NCBI GenBank assembly: GCA_034439715.1
Contig: JAWXAY010000065.1
Span: forward strand, 1 to 53,024
DNA length: 53,024 bases
Direction: 5' to 3'
DNA from: Pseudomonadota bacterium
GTDB lineage: Bacteria; Bdellovibrionota; Bdellovibrionia; Bdellovibrionales; SG-bin7
The position numbers and the translations under genes were made by a program. Below the pieces are notes generated by a model. The model saw only the letters and a program-made list of their open reading frames with translations. It searched no databases and was not told where the DNA came from. Below are positions 20,066 through 52,284 of this stretch, piece by piece (the first letter of the stretch is position 1; the number at the start of each line of letters is the position of its first letter).

Positions 20066-21961
20066 ATGACAAAGCAAGGAAGTCATTTTGATGTAATTGT
20101 AGTTGGAGCGGGGCACGCAGGAATCGAAGCTTGTCTTGCAACCTCACGCTCAGGGCTAAAAACTCTTATGGTTACTTCGAATTTAAATCGAATTGGCTTT
20201 ATGAGCTGCAATCCCTCTATTGGGGGATTAGCTAAGGGCCACATGGTGCGAGAACTTGATGTTTTGGGTGGAGAAATGGGCGCTGCTGCTGATGCCACTT
20301 GTATCCAATTTAAAAGGCTAAACGCAGGAAAAGGCCCGGCGGTGAGGGGCTCACGAGCCCAGTGTGATAAAGATCTTTATAGTTCGCACATGACTGACAG
20401 ACTGAAGACGCAAGAAAATTTAGAAGTTTTTGGTGGCGAGGTTAAAAGTCTTATTTTAGAAAAAGATAATTGTGTCGGAATTATTTTAGGCGACAAAAGC
20501 GAAATTCGAGCGAAGGCAGTAATAATAACAACCGGCACATTTATGAATGGAATCATGCATGTTGGCCAGCAAAGTGTCGCTGGCGGTAGAGTTGGTGATT
20601 CGGCGACGAGCGGACTTTCTGATCAGCTTGCGAGTTTTGGCTTTACGGTCCATCGTCTAAAGACAGGGACGCCCCCCCGGTTAGCAGCCGGAAGTATCGA
20701 TTGGTCAAAAACCGCGCCCCAATGCGGAGATAAAGTATTTTGGCCGTTTTCGTTAAGAAGCGAGAGGAATTTAAGGCTACCCCAGGTCACCTGCTATTTG
20801 GGCTATACAAATGCGAAAACACACGAAATTATTCAAAAAAATCTTAATCTTTCCCCCATGTATAGTGGATTAATAGAGGGCGTTGGTCCCCGATATTGTC
20901 CAAGTATCGAGGACAAAGTTACAAGATTTGCTGATCGCGATCGCCATCAAACTTTTTTGGAGCCCGAGGGGCTTTTAACAGATTCGATTTATCTTCAGGG
21001 AATTTCCACCAGCCTACCCACTAGCGTACAAGACGAGTTTCTAAAAACAATTGATGGACTTGAGAATGTAAAAGTAATTCGCTACGGGTATGCAGTTGAA
21101 TATGATTTTATTGAGCCCACTCAAATATGGCACAGCCTTGAAACCCGTGGAATAAAAAATCTCTTTTTAGCGGGACAAATAAATGGCACAAGTGGGTATG
21201 AAGAGGCGGCTGTTCAAGGATTTATAGCAGGCATAAATGCAGTTAAGAAAATTCGGGCCGAAGAGCCACTGATATTGGGCCGCGATCAGGCATACATTGG
21301 TGTTTTGATAGACGACCTGGTGACGAAGGGAACTCGAGAGCCCTACAGGATGTTCACCTCGCGCGCCGAACACCGACTCATGCTTCGTGAGGACAATACG
21401 GTCGAGAGGCTCTTTGACCTGGGCCGACGTCTGCACATATCAGACGATAAAAATCTTTTACGAGTCGACAGACTAAAGAATGAACGCGAAGAACTTTGGG
21501 ACATGCTGAAGACCAAGAAGGTTGTCCCAAACGCCGAAACTCAGGAGAAATTGAAAAAAATTGATTCGCCTGTTTTGACAAAGCCCCTTACTTTAGAGTG
21601 CTTACTGCGTCGCAGCGAACTGTCGTTTTTGGACCTCAGTGAGTTTACAGATATTAGTAAGTTTAAAGATCCTGAGATTCATGAGGCTGTTGAAATTCAA
21701 GTTAAATATTCAGGCTATATTTTTAGGCAACAAGAGTTAATAGTCCAAGCGCGTCGATTGGAGGGTCTCAGACTCGAGCCAGATATTAAATATGAGGAAA
21801 TTCGTGGACTTTCGACGGAAGAAGTTGAAAAGCTTAAAGATCGCAAGCCAATAAGCATCGGTCATGCACAGAGAATTAGTGGTGTTAATCCATCCGCTAT
21901 ACAGGCGATTTTGGTTTATATAAAGGGTCGCAAAAAATTTAAGGAGTTGACGGTTGATTAA
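20066..21961 (+). CDS. mnmG: tRNA uridine-5-carboxymethylaminomethyl(34) synthesis enzyme MnmG (GidA)
   Basis: GAGHAG, MSCNPSIGG, KTGTPPR, GPRYCPSIEDK, AGQINGTSGYEEAA; ATG 20066 behind AAGGTG. Confidence 0.97.
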   Translation: MTKQGSHFDVIVVGAGHAGIEACLATSRSGLKTLMVTSNLNRIGFMSCNPSIGGLAKGHMVRELDVLGGEMGAAADATCIQFKRLNAGKGPAVRGSRAQCDKDLYSSHMTDRLKTQENLEVFGGEVKSLILEKDNCVGIILGDKSEIRAKAVIITTGTFMNGIMHVGQQSVAGGRVGDSATSGLSDQLASFGFTVHRLKTGTPPRLAAGSIDWSKTAPQCGDKVFWPFSLRSERNLRLPQVTCYLGYTNAKTHEIIQKNLNLSPMYSGLIEGVGPRYCPSIEDKVTRFADRDRHQTFLEPEGLLTDSIYLQGISTSLPTSVQDEFLKTIDGLENVKVIRYGYAVEYDFIEPTQIWHSLETRGIKNLFLAGQINGTSGYEEAAVQGFIAGINAVKKIRAEEPLILGRDQAYIGVLIDDLVTKGTREPYRMFTSRAEHRLMLREDNTVERLFDLGRRLHISDDKNLLRVDRLKNEREELWDMLKTKKVVPNAETQEKLKKIDSPVLTKPLTLECLLRRSELSFLDLSEFTDISKFKDPEIHEAVEIQVKYSGYIFRQQELIVQARRLEGLRLEPDIKYEEIRGLSTEEVEKLKDRKPISIGHAQRISGVNPSAIQAILVYIKGRKKFKELTVD

Positions 21962-22571
21962 CGAATGGTTTGAGTGGCTAGATTCAGAAAAACTTGGAAA
22001 GATTAATCAGTTTCGCGAAATACTAATTAAGTTTAATGACTCTATAAACTTGATTTCTCCAAATACCGTTAAGGTGATTGATAATGTACACTTGGCCGAC
22101 TGTATTCTTGCCTCGAAATATATTCTGGAAAATTTGAATTCAGATACTCTTTTTGACTTAGGCAGCGGCAATGGCATGCCCGGCATAGTCTTGGCAGTTC
22201 TTAGCCTTGATCGGAAGATCGTACTAATAGATCGTGATCAAAAAAAGCTGGAGTTCCTAAAGCATGTGATTAGTGAGCTAAAGCTTACCAATGTCTCCTG
22301 CGCGACTGTAAACCTTGGGCAAGACAAGAGTTTAGCCATTGGCCAATCGGTTACTCGGGCGATGGCTCCCCTTGGAAGGTTTTTGAGCTCAATGAAGGAT
22401 CAATTTATTAGCGGTGGAAAGTGTTATTTAATGAAAACTCCCAAGTGGGAGTCCGAGCTTGCTCCTGATCATGGTTATCTTTTAAGAACTTGGTCGTGGC
22501 GTGTGGTTAACGAGTATGTTTTGCCATTGGACAGCCAGAAGCGAGTTATTATAGAGCTCATTCGAAAGTAG
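21954..22571 (+). CDS. rsmG: 16S rRNA m7G527 methyltransferase RsmG (GidB)
   Basis: NLIS...HLADC, DLGSGNGMPG SAM motif, VTRA; follows mnmG. Confidence 0.9.
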   Translation: MINEWFEWLDSEKLGKINQFREILIKFNDSINLISPNTVKVIDNVHLADCILASKYILENLNSDTLFDLGSGNGMPGIVLAVLSLDRKIVLIDRDQKKLEFLKHVISELKLTNVSCATVNLGQDKSLAIGQSVTRAMAPLGRFLSSMKDQFISGGKCYLMKTPKWESELAPDHGYLLRTWSWRVVNEYVLPLDSQKRVIIELIRK

Positions 22572-22578
22572 ACACGAG

Positions 22579-22594
22579 TGTTCCACGTGGAACA
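22579..22594. promoter_or_regulatory. parS centromere site 1
   Basis: TGTTCCACGTGGAACA perfect palindrome (extends to 22 bp, 22576-22597) matching the bacterial parS consensus. Confidence 0.93.
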
Positions 22595-22596
22595 CT

Positions 22597-23133
22597 CTAG
22601 TGCCCAGCCCCTGCCGCAGCTTCCGCCTTCTTGTCTTCAGAGTCAGACGCTTTAGATTGCTTTTTTAATCGCTGATTCCATTTTGGGACGCGAGAGTCCC
22701 AGGTTCTGCTGCTGTTTTTCAGTCGATTTTCAGCCAGAAAGCTTTGATACTCATCCGGCGGTGGCCAGGGCTGGTCTTTATTAAATGCTATGAGGTAGGC
22801 TTTTCGTGCCTCCTGCTTTCGCGTGTTGGCTCTAAGTTTATAGAATTTCGAAGTTTGAAGGGCCTTTTCTGCTTCTTCTTCTGTGGCGAAGTACCGGGCC
22901 TTCGCTGTTTTTTTTCTTCCCGAAAGCGCTTCAGAGGACTGCCAATCCTTTTTTATCACCTCTAACTCTGAAAGTTTCGTTTTATAGACAGCATAATGGT
23001 CTTTCTCAAACTTCAAAAGATCTGTATAAATAGGATCTAAATTTTCTGGATTTGAGAGCGGTTTCTTGCATCCTAGAAGAAACAAAACAAAAGTAGCCAT
23101 GACTATTCTTAAAGTGACTATACCCATACGCAT
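22597..23133 (-). CDS. Uncharacterised helical lipoprotein between the two parS sites
   Basis: Signal peptide with lipobox FLLGC, followed by a charged helical region; start probably ATG 23133 or 23127 (track start 23148). Confidence 0.75.
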   Translation of the reverse strand: MRMGIVTLRIVMATFVLFLLGCKKPLSNPENLDPIYTDLLKFEKDHYAVYKTKLSELEVIKKDWQSSEALSGRKKTAKARYFATEEEAEKALQTSKFYKLRANTRKQEARKAYLIAFNKDQPWPPPDEYQSFLAENRLKNSSRTWDSRVPKWNQRLKKQSKASDSEDKKAEAAAGAGH

Positions 23134-23138
23134 TAATA

Positions 23139-23165
23139 ATATCGGCATTTTTTTGTGGATTCTTA
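23139..23165 (-). promoter_or_regulatory. Putative sigma28 (FliA)-type promoter of the lipoprotein gene
   Basis: Minus strand TAAG-N15-GCCGATAT versus consensus TAAA-N15-GCCGATAA. Confidence 0.62.
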
Positions 23166-23166
23166 A

Positions 23167-23182
23167 TGTTCCACGTGGAACA
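23167..23182. promoter_or_regulatory. parS centromere site 2
   Basis: TGTTCCACGTGGAACA, identical to site 1, 26 bp upstream of parA. Confidence 0.93.
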
Positions 23183-23208: not shown

Positions 23209-24030
23209 ATGGGGAAAATTATTTGCGTAGCCAATCAGAAGGGTGGGGTAGGCAAAACAACCACTTCGGTTAACCTCTCGTCCTCCCTGGCTAATCGAAA
23301 TCGCAGGGTTCTTATATTAGACATGGACCCACAGGGCAACGCGTCAAGTGGTCTTGGCATAAAGCGTCATAGCATTGTAGAAAATAATATCTATCACGCT
23401 CTTATCGGAAAGAAGGAACTTAAAGAAATTATCATTGAGACTACAAATCCTTATCTGTCTATCGCTCCTGCTACTCCAGATTTAGTGGGCGCAGAAATAG
23501 AATTAGTCGATTTCGAAAGGCGCGAGTACCAACTTCAAGAAGCAATCGCACCAGTTAAAGAAAGCTACGACTATATTATTATAGATTGCCCACCATCGCT
23601 GGGACTTTTAACTCTAAATTCATTAACTGCAGCAAATTCATTTTTAGTTCCCTTGCAGTGCGAGTACTACGCGCTAGAGGGACTAAGTCAGTTGTTAAAC
23701 ACGGCCGGGTTGATCAAAAATAGTTTTAACCCCCAGCTGGTTATTGAAGGAATTGTATTAACGATGTTTGATACCAGAAACAATTTGAGTCACCAGGTTG
23801 TCCAAGAAATTCGTAGTCACTTTGGTGAAAAGGTATTTCAGGCTGTAATACCGAGAAACGTTCGATTGAGCGAAGCTCCTAGTCATGGAAAAACAATCAT
23901 AGATTATGATCCGAAATCAATTGGTGCTCAGAGATATGTAGAATTAGCAGCGGAAATCGATACAAAAAACTACCGAGCATCGGTAATGGCGATTAACAAG
24001 CCCGCTCCACAAGGAGAGATCCATGTCTAA
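23209..24030 (+). CDS. parA: Chromosome partitioning ATPase ParA/Soj
   Basis: NQKGGVGKTT deviant Walker A, DMDPQGNAS, DCPPSLG, QCEYYALEG, RLSEAPSHG. Confidence 0.96.
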   Translation: MGKIICVANQKGGVGKTTTSVNLSSSLANRNRRVLILDMDPQGNASSGLGIKRHSIVENNIYHALIGKKELKEIIIETTNPYLSIAPATPDLVGAEIELVDFERREYQLQEAIAPVKESYDYIIIDCPPSLGLLTLNSLTAANSFLVPLQCEYYALEGLSQLLNTAGLIKNSFNPQLVIEGIVLTMFDTRNNLSHQVVQEIRSHFGEKVFQAVIPRNVRLSEAPSHGKTIIDYDPKSIGAQRYVELAAEIDTKNYRASVMAINKPAPQGEIHV

Positions 24031-24937
24031 TGTTTTGTTTGAGGGTGTTGATAAGAAAAGGGGCTTGGGTCGGGGCCTTGGAAGTTTATTCGGCGACACC
24101 GAAGCGCCTCGTCCAGTCGGTGCCGCAACAAAAGAAAAAAACTCGCCGTACCAAATGATAGCACTCGATAAAATATTTCCTAATCCCCAACAACCGAGAA
24201 AACATTTTGCGGAAGAAAAACTTGCTGAACTCTCGTTGTCTATTAGATCACACGGCATTATTCAGCCGATCGTTGTGGCTCCCGAAAAGGAGGGCAGGTT
24301 TCAAATTATCGCCGGCGAACGGCGCTGGCGAGCCAGTCAACTTGCTGGCTTAAAACAGATACCAGTAATTATTAAAGAGGTTAACGAAAGCAAAACACTT
24401 GAGCTCGCCATAATCGAAAATATTCAACGCCAAGATTTGAATCCCATCGAAGAAGCTAAGGCTTACCTTTATCTCATTAAGAAATTTGGTCATACTCAAA
24501 ATGAAGTGGCAGAAAAAGTAGGAAAAGATCGTGCTACAATAGCGAACACGCTTAGAATTTTGACACTAGATGCGGAAATTATTGAGCTAGTCACAACGGG
24601 AAAGTTGTCCATGGGACACGCCAAAGCACTGCTTAGTGTCGAAAATAAAATGAGACAACGAGCGCTCGCAAGACAAGCCGTCGAAGAGGCACTTTCAGTT
24701 AGAGCCCTTGAGCGACTGACTAGCCACCCCTTGGTTGGCGAGGATATTCAGACTACTCAGGTGGCGCCAGTAAAAAGTAAAGAACAGTTACATTGTGGCG
24801 TCCTTGCCGGAGAGCTAGAAAAAAGACTGGGTACAAAAATCAAAATAGACTACCATAATGGAAAGGGCACCATCATGATTAGTTTTTATTCAAAAGACCA
24901 ACTCAATGAAATCGCAGAAAGACTAAAAAGCCTATGA
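24023..24937 (+). CDS. parB: Chromosome partitioning CTPase ParB/Spo0J
   Basis: KRGLGRGL ParA-activating motif, GERRWRA, IENIQRQDL, HTH GKDRATIANTLR. Confidence 0.96.
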   Translation: MSNVLFEGVDKKRGLGRGLGSLFGDTEAPRPVGAATKEKNSPYQMIALDKIFPNPQQPRKHFAEEKLAELSLSIRSHGIIQPIVVAPEKEGRFQIIAGERRWRASQLAGLKQIPVIIKEVNESKTLELAIIENIQRQDLNPIEEAKAYLYLIKKFGHTQNEVAEKVGKDRATIANTLRILTLDAEIIELVTTGKLSMGHAKALLSVENKMRQRALARQAVEEALSVRALERLTSHPLVGEDIQTTQVAPVKSKEQLHCGVLAGELEKRLGTKIKIDYHNGKGTIMISFYSKDQLNEIAERLKSL

Positions 24938-25314
24938 ATATGAGCTCAGATTTACTGCCGACCCTAGATTCGAACAAAAACGAAATTCCATCGGGTCAGA
25001 TTACCGCACTTCTTGATAAAGGAGCCTGTTTTGAGGGCCGCCTCACGTTTGAAGGCACCGTTCGCATTGGCGGAGTTTTTAAGGGAGAAATTTTCACTCG
25101 TGATACGCTTGTGATCGATCCCGGAGCCAGCGTTGAAGCACAGGTAGAGGCCGACTCAGTGATTATATGTGGCTCCGTAAAAGGAAATATTTTTGCGAGA
25201 CAAAGCGTAGTTATGCATCCCCCCGCCCGCTTTACAGGCACGGTTACTACCCCCAGTTTGAGGATTGATGAGGGTGTGGTTTTCGAGGGCGCTTCTTACA
25301 TGCCGAAAAACTAA
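24934..25314 (+). CDS. Bactofilin (polymer-forming cytoskeletal protein)
   Basis: Beta-helix repeats FEGRLTFEGTVRIGGVFKGEI...VIICGSVKGNI...IDEGVVFEG; ATGA overlap with parB. Confidence 0.9.
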   Translation: MNMSSDLLPTLDSNKNEIPSGQITALLDKGACFEGRLTFEGTVRIGGVFKGEIFTRDTLVIDPGASVEAQVEADSVIICGSVKGNIFARQSVVMHPPARFTGTVTTPSLRIDEGVVFEGASYMPKN

Positions 25315-25381
25315 AATCGCTTGACCCTTTAAGTTTCAGAATGCTAACTAAAAATCCAATTAAATCAAAGGCTTCAATTTA

Positions 25382-25840
25382 ATGGATATTCTTTTAGGTG
25401 TTTTGGATCAATTAAAAATTAACAATACTATTTGGATCCAATTAATTTGTTTTTTGGTCACATATTTTTTTATTAGTAATCTTTTTATTAAGCCGTACTA
25501 TCGAGCCTATATAAGCCGACAAGACCGCACAGTCGGAAATCAAGCACAAGCCATTAAGACCTCTGAAGACGCCGAGGCCCAATATTTAAAATATCAAGAT
25601 CAGGCCCGCGCTATTAATCTAGAAATAAAAAACATTTTTGATAAATCCCGCAAAGACGCAATTCGCGAACAAGACCACCTAATAGCAGGCGCCCGCGCGG
25701 AAGGACAAAAAAAAATCGAGTTGGGAAGAACTCAAATTGCGACCGAATCTACCCGGGCCCTACAAGAGGCTCAAAAAGAAGTCTCCGATATTAGCCATAT
25801 AATTCGTGCTAAAATGCTGGGAAAGGAAACGACAAATTGA
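25382..25840 (+). CDS. F0F1 ATP synthase subunit b'
   Basis: N-terminal TM (IWIQLICFLV...LFIKP) followed by coiled coil; first gene of the atp block. Confidence 0.85.
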   Translation: MDILLGVLDQLKINNTIWIQLICFLVTYFFISNLFIKPYYRAYISRQDRTVGNQAQAIKTSEDAEAQYLKYQDQARAINLEIKNIFDKSRKDAIREQDHLIAGARAEGQKKIELGRTQIATESTRALQEAQKEVSDISHIIRAKMLGKETTN

Positions 25841-26400
25841 CTGGAAAAGCAGGCTTTTTTTTAATTGCGCTAACTAGTGTTGCGTTAGCTAGCGAGGGAG
25901 AGCACGGAACAGCGCCGACACTTACTTTGGGTGAAATTATAAAACACCTGGGCCCAGCCATCTTCAACTTTTCTTTATTTATTGGTTTGTTGATTTACGC
26001 TCTCAGAAAGCCGATTTCTAACCTTTTCGCGGAACGGATTAATAATTATCGTGGGGCTCTGAAGTCTGCCGATGCGGCTTTGGCAGAGGCTCAAGCCAAA
26101 AGGAATGAGATCATTAAAAATATAAAGACTCTTGAAAGCACGCGTGCCGAGACGGTTTCTAAGGCCCAGAGGGATGCAGAGACTATTGGATTGGCAATTA
26201 TTAAGGAAGCTAAAACCAGTGCGAGTAAATTTAACGAAGAGGCCGAGCGCACTATTAAAGTAGAAGTAGAAAAAGCAAAAATAGATATTAGAAATCATCT
26301 GCTGCAGCAGGCGAGTTCCTCGGCCGAAAAAAGCCTGAGAGAACAGTTAGATGCCAGCGAGCAAAAACGTTTACAAAAAGAATTTGCCTCGAAAATATAG
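25837..26400 (+). CDS. atpF: F0F1 ATP synthase subunit b
   Basis: Signal-like N-terminus, NF..F...L....RKP motif, coiled coil. Confidence 0.88.
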   Translation: MTGKAGFFLIALTSVALASEGEHGTAPTLTLGEIIKHLGPAIFNFSLFIGLLIYALRKPISNLFAERINNYRGALKSADAALAEAQAKRNEIIKNIKTLESTRAETVSKAQRDAETIGLAIIKEAKTSASKFNEEAERTIKVEVEKAKIDIRNHLLQQASSSAEKSLREQLDASEQKRLQKEFASKI

Positions 26401-26407
26401 GTGAGAT

Positions 26408-26953
26408 GTGAAGCGAGCGAATATAGCAAGAAGATATGTTAAAGCAATGTTCGAGCTGGTGACGGACGGCCGACAGCTCGAATTAACATTAAACGAACTT
26501 CGACAAATTTTGGTGGTTTTTGAGGACAAAGAAATCTCAAGATTTATTGTTTCTCCTGTGGTAGCTGCCACGCAAAAGCTCGAGGCGATTTCGGCGGCGC
26601 TTGAGGCCAAGGGGCTAACTGAACTGACCAAAAACCTCCTTTTGCTTCTTGCTAAGAGAAATAGACTTATGCTTCTTTCTAAAGTTGTAGAGGCGTTTCA
26701 GGCAGAGCTCGACAGATCCAACGGAGTGGTTCGAGGCAGTGTTAAATCAACAGTAAATCTTGATCCTGAGGAACGAAAGCAAATAGAAAACAAGGTGGGC
26801 GCTTTTTTCAAAAAGGATGTTATTTTGAAATTCTCTACTGAACCAAAGCTTGTTGGCGGCCTAGTCGCTACTGTCGGCAGCTTTACTTTTGATGACAGCA
26901 TTAGCTCTTACTTAAAAAGGTTAAACGATAATCTTAACAGAGGTACAAACTAA
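26408..26953 (+). CDS. atpH: ATP synthase subunit delta
   Basis: [24 protein letters not shown]...DDSI. Confidence 0.93.
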
Positions 26954-26954
26954 A

Positions 26955-28472
26955 ATGGAAATGGGAATTAAAGTAGACGAAATCAGCCGTGTATTAAAAG
27001 ATCAGATCAAAAATTTCAAAAAGAATATTGAGGTCACGGAGACTGGTACGGTTCTCCAGGTGGGTGACGGAGTAGCCAGAATATATGGGATGGAAAGTGT
27101 TCAGGCAGGAGAACTTGTTGAGTTTAACGGCGGAATCAAGGGCATGGTTTTAAACCTCGAGGCCGACTCAGTGGGCGTAGTAATTTTTGGCGAAGATAAA
27201 GAAATCAAAGAAGGCGATACAGTAAAAAGAACAAAAAAAATTGTGGAAGTACCAGTAGGCGAAGCACTTCTAGGTCGCGTCGTAGACGCCCTAGGGAATG
27301 CGATTGATGGTCACGGCGCAATTAAAAGCGAGCACACTCGTCGCGTAGAAATTAAAGCGCCAGGTATCGTAACAAGAAAGACAGTACACGAGCCACTTCA
27401 AACGGGCATTAAGGCCATCGACTCTTTGATACCAATTGGCCGTGGTCAGCGGGAGCTTATCATTGGTGATCGGCAAACGGGAAAAACAGCGATAGCGATT
27501 GATGCGATCATTAATCAAAAGGGCCAAAACGTTTATTGTTTTTATGTAGCTATCGGGCAAAAAAGATCGACGGTGGCTCAGGTTGTTGAAAAATTGAAGG
27601 CTGCCGGCGCTATGGAATATACGACCGTTATCGCAGCGACAGCCTCAGACCCCGCGCCCCTTCAGTTCTTATCGGCCTATTCAGGTTGTACCATGGCAGA
27701 ATATTTTAGAGATTCTGGTCGGCATGCACTCATCGTTTATGACGATTTAACAAAACAGGCGCAAGCTTATCGCCAGATGTCGCTTCTTCTTCGACGCCCA
27801 CCAGGTCGCGAAGCTTTTCCTGGCGATGTTTTTTATCTACACTCGCGACTTCTTGAGCGTGCCGCTAAATTAAATGAAAAATTTGGTAGCGGATCTCTGA
27901 CCGCCCTCCCCATTATTGAAACTCAGGCGGGTGATATAGCGGCTTATATTCCGACCAACGTTATTTCGATTACTGACGGACAAATATTTTTGGAGGCCGA
28001 CTTATTTTACAGAGGCATACGGCCGGCAATTGATGTGGGAAAATCAGTTTCGCGCGTGGGCGGAGCGGCACAAATTAAAGCCATGAAACAGGTGGCGGGC
28101 TCTCTGAAACTAGAGTTGGCGCAGTTCCGGGAGCTAGAAGCCTTTTCGGCCTTTGGTTCAGACTTAGACAAGGCCACAATGGCTCAACTTCAGCGCGGCC
28201 GCCGTTTGGTCGAAGTTTTAAAACAAGCACAATTTAGTCCTTATACAGTAACAGATCAGGTTTTGGCAATTTTTGCGGCCACTCAAGGTTACTTGGATGA
28301 CGTTAAAGAAACCGAAGTAAGGCGCTTCGAAACAGAGCTCTTACAATTTATGAAACAAAAACATTCGGGCATAATTGCTAAAATTGCTGAACATAAACAA
28401 ATTAAAGATGAGGTCAGGCCCGAGTTAGTGTCGGCCGTAAAAGAGTTTAAAGCGGTCTTTCAGCCAGCTTAA
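26955..28472 (+). CDS. atpA: ATP synthase subunit alpha
   Basis: [37 protein letters not shown]. Confidence 0.98.
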
Positions 28473-28481
28473 GGAAAAGGA

Positions 28482-30780
<2,299 letters not shown>

Positions 30781-30783
30781 AAA

Positions 30784-31206
30784 ATGAATACATTGATGCT
30801 AACACTTGTTACACCAGTTAAAAAATTTTTAGAGGACGTTGAAGTCAGTGAGGTTTTAATTCCCGGCTATGTGGGAGAGCTAAACATACTCCCAGGTCAC
30901 GCGCCACTTATGACCACGCTTAATCCCGGAATTTTAAAATACAAGCCAAGCAACAGTAGCGAATATAAATCCGTTTCTATTAGTTGGGGCTACTGTGAAG
31001 TGGGCCCCAAAGGCGTTACAATTTTGGCTGAAACGGCTGAACTGCCCGAAGAAATAAATATTAAACGTGCCGAAGATACCAAAGTAAAATCAGAGCGCGC
31101 ACTTTTGACTCATGAAATCAGCCTTGACGACATTTATAAACATCAAATGAAAATCCGCAGGTCCTTGGTGCGCATGGAAGTCGCTAAATCAAAAGTGACT
31201 GACTAA
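30784..31206 (+). CDS. atpC: ATP synthase subunit epsilon
   Basis: LVTP, GELNILPGHAPL, C-terminal helices. Confidence 0.95.
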   Translation: MNTLMLTLVTPVKKFLEDVEVSEVLIPGYVGELNILPGHAPLMTTLNPGILKYKPSNSSEYKSVSISWGYCEVGPKGVTILAETAELPEEINIKRAEDTKVKSERALLTHEISLDDIYKHQMKIRRSLVRMEVAKSKVTD

Positions 31207-49973: not shown

Positions 49974-50342
49974 ATGAATATGCAAGAAGCGAACTGGATA
50001 TCCTTAATGGATTACTCAAATAAATACCATGTAAGCATGTCAACGCTAAGGCGCAGGATAAAAAATCGCGAGCTTAAATATCATTTAAAAACCGGTAAAT
50101 ATTATTTGTCTGATGAACCCATGACTAATCAGCAAGAAGAAGACCTGGATAACCAAGTTGTTTTTGAAAAAACACCAGACAATTCAGATGTTTACCTTCA
50201 GGAGCTTAAAAAAGCCTACACTATGATTCTTCATGAGAAAGAAGAACAAATTCAAATATTGAAAGAAGAAATTGCCGATCTCAAAACACTAGTTAGTGTT
50301 CTTGAAAGTGAAAATCAACGCGTGAATAGTCAATTGCGGTAA
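49974..50342 (+). CDS. Small protein with N-terminal MerR/excisionase-like HTH and C-terminal coiled coil
   Basis: WISLMDYSNKYHVSMSTLRRRIK HTH pattern; heptads LHEKEEQIQILKEEIADLKTLVSVLE. Confidence 0.75.
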   Translation: MNMQEANWISLMDYSNKYHVSMSTLRRRIKNRELKYHLKTGKYYLSDEPMTNQQEEDLDNQVVFEKTPDNSDVYLQELKKAYTMILHEKEEQIQILKEEIADLKTLVSVLESENQRVNSQLR

Positions 50343-50387
50343 AACTGAGTATTTAGGGCCCTGGGCTGACTCGGGCAAACCGCACTG

Positions 50388-50828
50388 TTAATGCGGTTCT
50401 CTCACTATACATTGAAATTCTATTAGGGTGCCGTTTGGACGAGTGAGCCAGGAGGTGCCGCCATTATCACGAAAACTTATTTCATATCCCTTAATCTCCG
50501 CTAGTGCACGAGTTCCCGACTTCGAACAGCTGTCCCACTCAGTTTTGGTTGTTAAGAAGGCCTTTCCCTTGCGGTAGACCTGAAACCTTCCCGTTCCTCG
50601 CTCGCACCAGCTGTTCGCTGGTTCAGAAGTCAGTTTAGAGAAATTTAATTCATAACCATTGGTTGAGATACTTTTACAATGCGCATAGGTCACGCCTTCC
50701 GCGGCATTTAAAGATAGATTTTCTATCTGTAAACTCAAATCTAATTCACTATTAATGTTTTGATCTGCCTGTGCGTTCAGTGCAAAAAACAAATTAACAC
50801 TCATTAAACTCATAATTATTTGTTTCAT
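50388..50828 (-). CDS. Hypothetical secreted protein (4 Cys)
   Basis: Sec signal ending AQA, GAAGGA RBS, beta-rich mature part. Confidence 0.7.
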   Translation of the reverse strand: MKQIIMSLMSVNLFFALNAQADQNINSELDLSLQIENLSLNAAEGVTYAHCKSISTNGYELNFSKLTSEPANSWCERGTGRFQVYRKGKAFLTTKTEWDSCSKSGTRALAEIKGYEISFRDNGGTSWLTRPNGTLIEFQCIVREPH

Positions 50829-50851
50829 ACTTGGGTCCTTCTAAAATGGTT

Positions 50852-51328
50852 TTAAAAGCAATTGTGTATTGGTGCGCAACACTTGGGGCGCTGATCATCC
50901 TTGGCGCATTGAAAACTAAGAGTACCTAGCTCTTCAAAATAAATTATTTTAAATTTTTCTTTAGTAATAGTGATATTTGGAATCACGACATGTCGAGCCC
51001 CTTGAGTATTCTCATATAAAATATCACCACTAATTGAACTAGCTGTAGCAATCTCATTAATGTCCATAGAATCAAGCAGAAAGATGAAGAGTTCTGCAGG
51101 GTGCCTGGCCTTGAGTTTACGATATTCCGCACGTGTGTCGTCATCTAAGTTAAGCTCCAAAATCACTTGGTAATTATGAGGTTTTTTATAAACAATATGA
51201 GAGGCAAAAACTGGCCCCTCTCCTAAAAGAATCATATTGTGTTTTGGATGTTGATGAGGCTCTCCATGGGCTATTGTTTCCGTGCAACTCAAACATAAAG
51301 TACACATTATTTTTAAAATTAGTTTCAT
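50852..51328 (-). CDS. Hypothetical exported His-containing protein
   Basis: Probable start MKLILK (ATG 51328); HGEPHQHPKHNMIL, ASHI, PHNYQVILE; Cys-rich tail. Confidence 0.65.
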   Translation of the reverse strand: MKLILKIMCTLCLSCTETIAHGEPHQHPKHNMILLGEGPVFASHIVYKKPHNYQVILELNLDDDTRAEYRKLKARHPAELFIFLLDSMDINEIATASSISGDILYENTQGARHVVIPNITITKEKFKIIYFEELGTLSFQCAKDDQRPKCCAPIHNCF

Positions 51329-51399
51329 ACCCTTAATCCTCTCGTCACATTCCAAAAGGGAATGTGCCATAACCACTAAAACTTGTAAAATTCATAATA

Positions 51400-51415
51400 T
51401 TGATGTATCCATCAA
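51400..51415. promoter_or_regulatory. Inverted repeat, probable LysR operator
   Basis: TTGATG-TATC-CATCAA, 5 bp before the LysR ATG, in the divergent intergenic region. Confidence 0.5.
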
Positions 51416-51420
51416 AATAA

Positions 51421-52284
51421 ATGAGTTTACTAAGCGCCAACCTACAAGCCTTTTTAGCTGTTTACGAAAAATCTACCGTTAGTGGTGCGACCGAGAAGCT
51501 TGGCATCGGGCAAACAGCTGTTACACAAAGAATTAGATCTCTAGAAAATGAACTGGGAGTGACGCTTTTTACTCGAAGTCGCAAAGGCATGATATTAACT
51601 TCCGAAGGAAAGTCCCTATTAAAATACTGTTTACGCGCTAGAGAACTCGAGGGAGAGACTATTGGAGACCTAAAAGAAGGCGGACGCAAAAGTGACATTG
51701 AAATAAGATTTGCGGGCCCTACGAGCTTTCTTTCAGGACGAGCCGCCGGTCAATGTAAAGAGATTTTCAAAAAATGGCCGCGACTGAATCTTCACTTTAT
51801 AATCGACGACAGTGAAAATAGACTCGATCTTATAAAGCAAGGCTTAGCAGATATCGTCGTGTTACACCCACATCAAGTACCGCTTGAGCTCGACAGCAAA
51901 ATTATCAAGCCAGATGAGTACTTATTAGTAGGACATCCCGAGTGGAAGGGTAGGGATTTAAAAGACATTCTGGAGAACGAAAGACTTTTCGCATTTCATT
52001 CTGAAGATCAGACGAGTATAAACTATCTTAAGGTATACGATTTTTTGAAATATTTAAAAAGACCACGTTTATTTGTGAACGAAAATTTAGCGCTGTTAAC
52101 ATTTCTTCAGCAGGGAGTTGGCTTTGGCCTCTTGTCTCGGGAAATTGCCAGACCCTTTCTCGAAGATAAGACCTTAATAAAACTTAATCAAGGTCGCACT
52201 ATGAAAGATCCTTTGGCACTGGCCTGGTATCCGAGATCAGAAATGCCAAATTACTTCTCTGAAATAATCCAGTCTATAAAGTAA
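51421..52284 (+). CDS. LysR-family transcriptional regulator (ArgP/LysG-like N-terminus)
   Basis: LQAFLAVYE..TVSGA...LGIGQTAVTQRIRSLENELGVTLFTR; 287 aa. Confidence 0.93.
   Translation: MSLLSANLQAFLAVYEKSTVSGATEKLGIGQTAVTQRIRSLENELGVTLFTRSRKGMILTSEGKSLLKYCLRARELEGETIGDLKEGGRKSDIEIRFAGPTSFLSGRAAGQCKEIFKKWPRLNLHFIIDDSENRLDLIKQGLADIVVLHPHQVPLELDSKIIKPDEYLLVGHPEWKGRDLKDILENERLFAFHSEDQTSINYLKVYDFLKYLKRPRLFVNENLALLTFLQQGVGFGLLSREIARPFLEDKTLIKLNQGRTMKDPLALAWYPRSEMPNYFSEIIQSIK

Follow-up and report, generated by a model that had tools for sequence, protein, structure and literature searches.

In our study, a predicted sigma-28 (FliA) promoter was found to be built directly against the upstream parS site of a lipoprotein gene that is specific to its bacterial order. 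What is shown is the layout of the locus, the promoter motif, the two registers in which it keeps a fixed offset from parS, and the disappearance of the motif where the gene is missing. From this arrangement we infer an AND gate, in which ParB likely blocks the promoter and the gene would be read only if FliA is present and ParB is off the upstream parS; this reading is given an even chance.

The par locus and its two parS sites

The window, i.e., the whole analysed stretch of 53,024 nucleotides (contig JAWXAY010000065.1), contained two identical copies of TGTTCCACGTGGAACA, at positions 22579-22594 and 23167-23182, and both coordinates were confirmed on re-checking. Each copy is a 16-bp palindrome of perfect symmetry that fits the parS consensus, with one mismatch to TGTTNCACGTGAAACA, which we take to be the general form of that consensus. 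The two copies were the only sites within one mismatch of the parS consensus in the whole genome (3,256,255 bases), and two further parS-like sites, each with two mismatches, were found on other contigs. Binding of the cognate ParB to parS has been shown on a plasmid for Bdellovibrio bacteriovorus, which is another organism than that of the window (PMC10547168).

Both palindromes fall between rsmG and the parA-parB-bactofilin genes. The rsmG (gidB) gene (21954-22571, plus strand; Pfam GidB, E 4e-31) converges with the lipoprotein gene (22597-23133, minus strand; 178 aa with a predicted leaderless start), and the downstream parS lies between them, 7 bp past the rsmG stop codon and 2 bp past the lipoprotein stop codon. 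The upstream parS is located 26 bp ahead of the parA start and 7.5 kb from the start of dnaA, i.e., close to parAB and the origin. parA (23209-24030, plus strand; Pfam AAA_31, E 8e-68) is divergent from the lipoprotein gene and is followed by parB (24023-24937, plus strand; Pfam ParB_N, HTH_ParB and ParB_C). Directly 3' of parB, region 24934-31206 was found to contain bactofilin and then the genes for ATP synthase (F0 b/b' and F1), the latter named from their translations.

The initial annotation had described two identical parS sites around one antisense gene, and all of its coordinates held. Read from the first ATG, the minus-strand open reading frame spans 22597-23148 and is the only one of at least 60 aa on that strand between the two sites; a plus-strand open reading frame of 73 aa overlaps it. 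The ATG at 23148 overlaps the -10 box of the promoter described below, and the ATG at 23133, which gives the protein of 178 aa, is the likelier start codon.

A gene between two parS sites is already in print (PMC10547168, Figures 1B and 5), where the par locus of strain HD100 is given as bd3908-parS-bd3907-parS-parAB-bd3904 (Kaljevic, 2023). The window resembles that locus in its gene order, in the two parS sites around one oppositely oriented gene and in the bactofilin gene after parB, and the named Bdellovibrio records were found to carry the same lipoprotein family and the identical 16-mer. They differ in that the Bdellovibrio parS lies over the end of the -10 box and the predicted start site, whereas the parS of the window abuts the -35 box. 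The 'bd3907-parS1' primer of that study falls within the family gene, and named Bdellovibrio records have the family in this position; the gene of the window is therefore the orthologue of bd3907 of B. bacteriovorus. In the accessible part of that paper bd3907 is termed an unknown protein and no promoter is named (PMC10547168).

The lipoprotein and its family

The encoded protein contains a basic-hydrophobic signal peptide followed by the lipobox LLG/C (Cys22; 23068-23079, minus strand). The lipobox Cys was invariant among 122 aligned proteins, as were one Asp and one Trp. The lipobox was located in 110 of 117 loci, and the residue before the Cys was G, A or S in all 110, followed after the Cys by a variable residue (N, K, D, E, S or R). 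A signal peptide that ends in a lipobox with an invariant Cys is the mark of a bacterial lipoprotein, and lipidation is predicted for this family; the proposed lipobox lipoprotein was thus upheld by the conservation of its Cys. The C-terminal part is predicted to be short and helical, and is rich in Trp, Pro and Arg. The AlphaFold model (pLDDT 96) consisted of a long two-helix hairpin and short C-terminal helices.

The lipoprotein had no Pfam or NCBIfam match in the family searches, nothing below E 0.3 among PDB sequences and nothing at E 0.001 in a Foldseek search with the predicted structure. Structure comparison of the whole protein gave generic helical-hairpin or coiled-coil matches only (best Z 9.7, rmsd 2.3, 90 aligned residues), and the Atlas matches were all under 0.9. 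A function by homology was therefore set aside, with no family, PDB or Foldseek match and only generic coiled coils. The product would most likely not be an enzyme but a coiled-coil scaffold that is anchored to the membrane in the envelope of the swimming cell.

The family profile was built on 122 aligned proteins (the window protein, one search match and 120 of the 150 listed proteins). Within the order it matched 233 of 301 genomes, almost always in single copy, whereas none of 120 genomes taken from the phylum's other families gave a match; the lipoprotein family is order-specific. From the 233 positive genomes, 117 distinct loci were examined, comprising the best matches and 60 loci hand-picked for genus spread, after removal of three duplicates; the named genome collection was queried with a single protein and gave 30 loci. 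parA was divergent from the lipoprotein gene in 116 of the 117 loci, the remaining locus being interrupted by a contig end. With up to two mismatches allowed, 109 of the 117 loci had an upstream parS and 112 a downstream one, and 106 had both. The downstream parS was usually within a few bases of the lipoprotein stop codon, and no conserved flank motif or promoter was found beside it in 59 genera. Among 23 genomes with no or only a marginal family match, parA was located in 15, one of which (L129) actually held the gene.

A few loci showed other arrangements of parS. In L041, L077, L092, L016 and L020, three to five parS copies were arrayed 3' of the lipoprotein gene, with a spacing of about 38 bp in L041. 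In loci L026, L027, L108, L109 and L110, and in L005, L008, L015 and L017, the downstream parS was inside a coding sequence, either the 3' end of the lipoprotein gene (genus g12) or rsmG. Several of the gene-less genomes (L124-L138) are small (1.6-2.4 Mb) and retain FliA and parS, and some of them were also devoid of rsmG beside parA.

The predicted sigma-28 promoter of the window

On the minus strand, the upstream parS (23167-23182) is directly adjoined by the -35 box TTAAG (23166-23162), followed by 16 nucleotides and the -10 box CCGATA (23140-23145), with a predicted start site at 23131-23134. The motif matched the published attack-phase FliA consensus at 11 of 11 positions (PMC3627812). 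The octamer GCCGATAT occupies 23146-23139 of the minus strand, and the whole span from this element to the far end of parS (23139-23182) is 44 bp. Exact TTAAG-N16-CCGATA was found in nine copies in the genome, against one to four copies at six other spacer lengths. FliA is encoded in the genome (TIGR02479, 265.6 bits, above the cut-off), and a FliA match was found in 52 of the 55 relatives' genomes tested. The suggestion of a sigma-28-type promoter beside parS was therefore supported by the exact consensus, the strand-specific conservation described below and the FliA gene in the genome.

In all 12 loci with the promoter-parS spacing of the window, the first in-frame start was 12-16 nt past CCGA, and mapped FliA start sites are 11-14 nt past CCGA in eight rows of Table S2, counted by eye (PMC3627812). 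The transcript of the window gene is therefore predicted to be leaderless and to begin at about 23133. The promoter resembles the mapped FliA attack-phase promoters (Karunker, 2013; PMC3627812) in its exact TTAAG-N16-CCGATA and in a start codon that coincides with the predicted start site, a feature shared with many of the leaderless transcripts listed there. Unlike them, this promoter is not among the 140 mapped promoters, and no FliA promoter joined to parS is described in the accessible part of that paper. No description of a sigma-28/parS overlap was found in the literature searched on Bdellovibrio parS and ParB, bd3907, FliA and parS-promoter overlap, a scope that covers few subscription papers.

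The spacer of the promoter contained GAATCCACA (23154-23162, minus strand), which is DnaA-box-like in this genome only; the conserved part of the site is GAATC(C/T)A. The initial annotation had correctly placed a DnaA-box-like motif here, and it fits the DnaA box of B. bacteriovorus, NN(A/T)TCCACA (PMC5124646). The motif was present in only 1 of 116 loci, against 3.2 expected by chance, and the three closest relatives keep GAATC but not CACA. Its seven fixed bases turn up once every 4.4 kb of the genome, so that a single copy is not beyond chance. The further idea that DnaA bound in the spacer adds control by the replication state is thus highly improbable. The GAATC of the spacer also led us to CcrM/GANTC methylation, which was rejected with a genome-wide observed/expected ratio of 1.0 and only partial PF01555 matches; the sole paper found with both terms concerns Caulobacter.

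The promoter-parS offset across the order

A fixed published sigma-28 consensus of 11 positions was used to score 116 loci. A score of at least 8 was found in 106 of the 116 loci on the gene's strand and in 3 on the other strand, with mean scores of 8.6 and 6.6, respectively, against 7.0 in shuffles. The best -10 motif fell into two main positions relative to the start of the upstream parS. In 90 loci, including Bdellovibrio, it was found at -7 to -4 (the main register), where the last bases of the -10 box belong to parS, which also extends over the predicted start site. In 12 loci, including the window, it was found at +37/+38 (the window register), with parS against the -35 box. In the remaining 14 loci, the best motif was 17-38 bp before parS or 51-57 bp after it, or the upstream parS was absent.

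Exact CCGA at -7 to -4 or at +37/+38 of the upstream parS was present in 103 of 115 loci and 55 of 62 genera, counts for which the slots were picked after viewing the loci and in which relatives are not independent. The same slots contained CCGA in 2 of 115 loci on the other strand and in 0 and 5 of 112 loci at the downstream parS, with a background of 1.9% for six slots. In the main register, the gap from parA to parS ranged from 35 to 361 bp, while the distance from parS to CCGA varied within 4 bp. Homologues of the parS, promoter and lipoprotein arrangement thus support the tie between the promoter and the upstream parS, and the DnaA-like motif drops out of it. The downstream parS was also considered for a sigma-28 promoter of its own; this was rejected, as the scores there track the last rsmG codons (mostly ACA and not ACC) and CCGA was in the slots in only 5 of 112 loci.

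Among the 14 gene-less parA loci, parS was kept in 13 and CCGA was found in the tested slots in none, with FliA present in nearly all of the relatives' genomes; therefore the promoter goes with the gene and not with parS. In L129, the gene-bearing false negative, the CCGA/parS overlap was present. The window register was found in nine genera of six families, and required four changes on the tree, at least two of them forced by well-supported branches. The tree is a quick tree of 65 rows with weak deep branches, and from these sequences the main register could be a single inherited arrangement.

Expression and ParB data from B. bacteriovorus

FliA promoters mark the attack phase, and FliA itself is attack-phase specific (PMC3627812). 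In Table S1 of the same study, Bd3907 has 57 RPKM in the attack phase and 17 in the growth phase (102 and 9 reads; Bonferroni 0.71), and it was flagged as attack-specific by threshold, though it is not significant after Bonferroni correction. Bd3907 appears in the expression table and is absent from the table of transcription start sites. The proposed attack-phase expression is thus seen as a bias of the orthologue in the right direction, but the bias is weak. The neighbouring genes behave in the opposite way, with attack and growth values of 3.5 and 1434 RPKM for parA, 3.6 and 736 for parB, and 28 and 886 for bd3908 (PMC3627812).

The initial annotation had also suggested that the antisense transcript interferes with read-through into parAB. 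In the growth phase, 9 reads fall on bd3907, compared with 583 and 1220 on the genes to either side (PMC3627812), and the RNA library appears to be unstranded. With so few growth-phase reads over bd3907 in such a library, parA probably has its own promoter, and the read-through idea is undercut.

ParB is on parS in the growth phase only, and parAB mRNA is mainly of the growth phase, its control being stated as an open question (PMC10547168). When it carries its flanks (fragments of 242 and 330 bp), each of the two parS sites prevents ParB foci in the attack phase, an effect reported in Bdellovibrio only and ascribed to an unknown factor (PMC10547168). By the published primers, the 242-bp fragment was mapped to 1363-1604 of the B. 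bacteriovorus locus L143 (exactly 242 bp) and contained the whole promoter and the overlapped parS, whereas the other published fragment maps over the downstream parS and is devoid of the conserved promoter. As the promoter-less fragment also blocks ParB, promoter occlusion explains at most one of the two fragments, and the promoter alone cannot account for the published block. In late growth, the flagellin genes are reported to be switched on and the ParB signal falls.

Possible regulation at the promoter-parS overlap

ParB loaded on the upstream parS would likely block the sigma-28 polymerase by steric exclusion, at the edge of the -35 box in the genome of the window and, in most relatives, by covering the start site and the end of the -10 box. 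The AND gate would likely be used late in growth, when flagellar genes are on and ParB may still be bound, and an envelope protein of the progeny would then wait for the end of segregation. There is a precedent in Pseudomonas aeruginosa, where ParB at parS3/parS4 represses PA0011 and PA0013 (Kawalek, 2017, as given in the review PMC7022226). The two systems are alike in that a chromosomal parS upstream of a gene permits repression by ParB; they differ in that repression is shown there and is our proposal here, and in that the present case has a developmental sigma-28 promoter, an order-wide offset and ParB on parS in one phase only. Chromosomal ParB often hardly affects nearby genes (PMC7022226), and the repression may be redundant because FliA itself is restricted to the attack phase.

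An ordinary FliA-driven gene may also have landed in the gidB-parA gap, the usual place of parS sites, the bases shared by promoter and parS being ancestral packing with no coupling. The gap is short (parS lies at a median distance of about 93 bp from parA), the main register may go back to one ancestral state, parS persists without the gene or the promoter, and in some lineages promoter and parS stand 14-20 bp apart or the upstream parS is lost. Crowding of this kind fits poorly, however, with an offset that stays fixed while the adjacent gap varies tenfold, and with the lineages of rearranged element order, which have mostly regained direct contact, as the repeated and in part forced changes to the window register illustrate. 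We regard it as possible, if somewhat doubtful. It is also conceivable that parAB is the main target, the attack-phase sigma-28 polymerase occluding an overlapping growth-phase parA promoter and so making parAB biphasic, with ParB at parS perhaps autoregulating as well. The restriction of parAB mRNA to the growth phase (PMC10547168) agrees with this, and the scarce read-through over bd3907 calls for a local parA promoter, with only 26 bp from parS to parA in the window. The putative -10 box of such a promoter is TGGATT (23156-23161, plus strand), a sequence candidate that is the conserved part of the GAATCCACA site read on the parA strand. On the parA strand, the motif T(A/G)GA(C/T)T stops 5 nt short of parS in 13 of 63 rows, while none of 59 rows has it at the downstream parS. 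It was present in all four loci of the window's family and in nine other genera; in family f12, TTGAAA recurs within the sigma-28 spacer. Yet the motif was absent from all 14 genera of family f10, and in family f5 it overlaps the lipoprotein's own ribosome-binding site. The sigma-70 score of the parA strand barely exceeds that of shuffles (11.5 and 11.0), a consensus scan of the window does not pick up such a promoter here, and parAB is retained by lineages without the lipoprotein gene. Control of parAB as the main role is therefore unlikely.

The FliA polymerase on or beside parS might itself be the factor that keeps ParB away in the attack phase. The published block by the parS flanks, which is confined to Bdellovibrio (PMC10547168), would suit such a role, and the 242-bp fragment includes the entire promoter with the overlapped parS; but the second fragment, over the downstream parS, blocks ParB without the conserved promoter, and the sigma-28-like scores at the end of rsmG reflect the codons there, which are mostly ACA in place of ACC. 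The transcription is also weak (57 RPKM), and the promoter disappears with the gene while parS stays. We consider this role very unlikely as the explanation of the overlap. Occlusion of the parA promoter and such an effect on the centromere can both coexist with the AND gate. Taken together with it, they would make the centromere a life-cycle switch, in which ParB and the sigma-28 polymerase exclude each other on one parS, an envelope protein of the attack phase is licensed once segregation ends, and transcription in that phase helps to shut the parA promoter and to keep ParB off that site; we offer this wider scheme tentatively and think it rather unlikely to hold in full.

The on/off switching of ParB at the predator centromere and the growth-only parAB expression are stated as open questions (PMC10547168), and a part of the question becomes testable because the 242-bp fragment reported to block ParB contains a conserved FliA promoter. 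The AND gate, if true, would be a developmental promoter that reads centromere occupancy. Even without coupling, an order-specific lipoprotein family gains a predicted regulator and phase.

A gapped palindrome near the par loci

The gapped palindrome TGANTANTCA was found to recur around the par locus at non-homologous places (L011, L017, L021, L049, L070, L104 and others). The two intergenic regions contained 15 matches to it, whereas none of 47 control palindromes had more than 4, and it is a candidate protein-binding site near the centromere. No exact copy was present at the par locus of the window or of genome G039, and the palindrome is therefore lineage-specific. In genome G007, six of its 70 genome copies were located within 1.5 kb (C1:963476-964952). 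Elsewhere in the window, region 49975-51924 contained nine matches with at most one mismatch, two of them exact, inside 2 kb.
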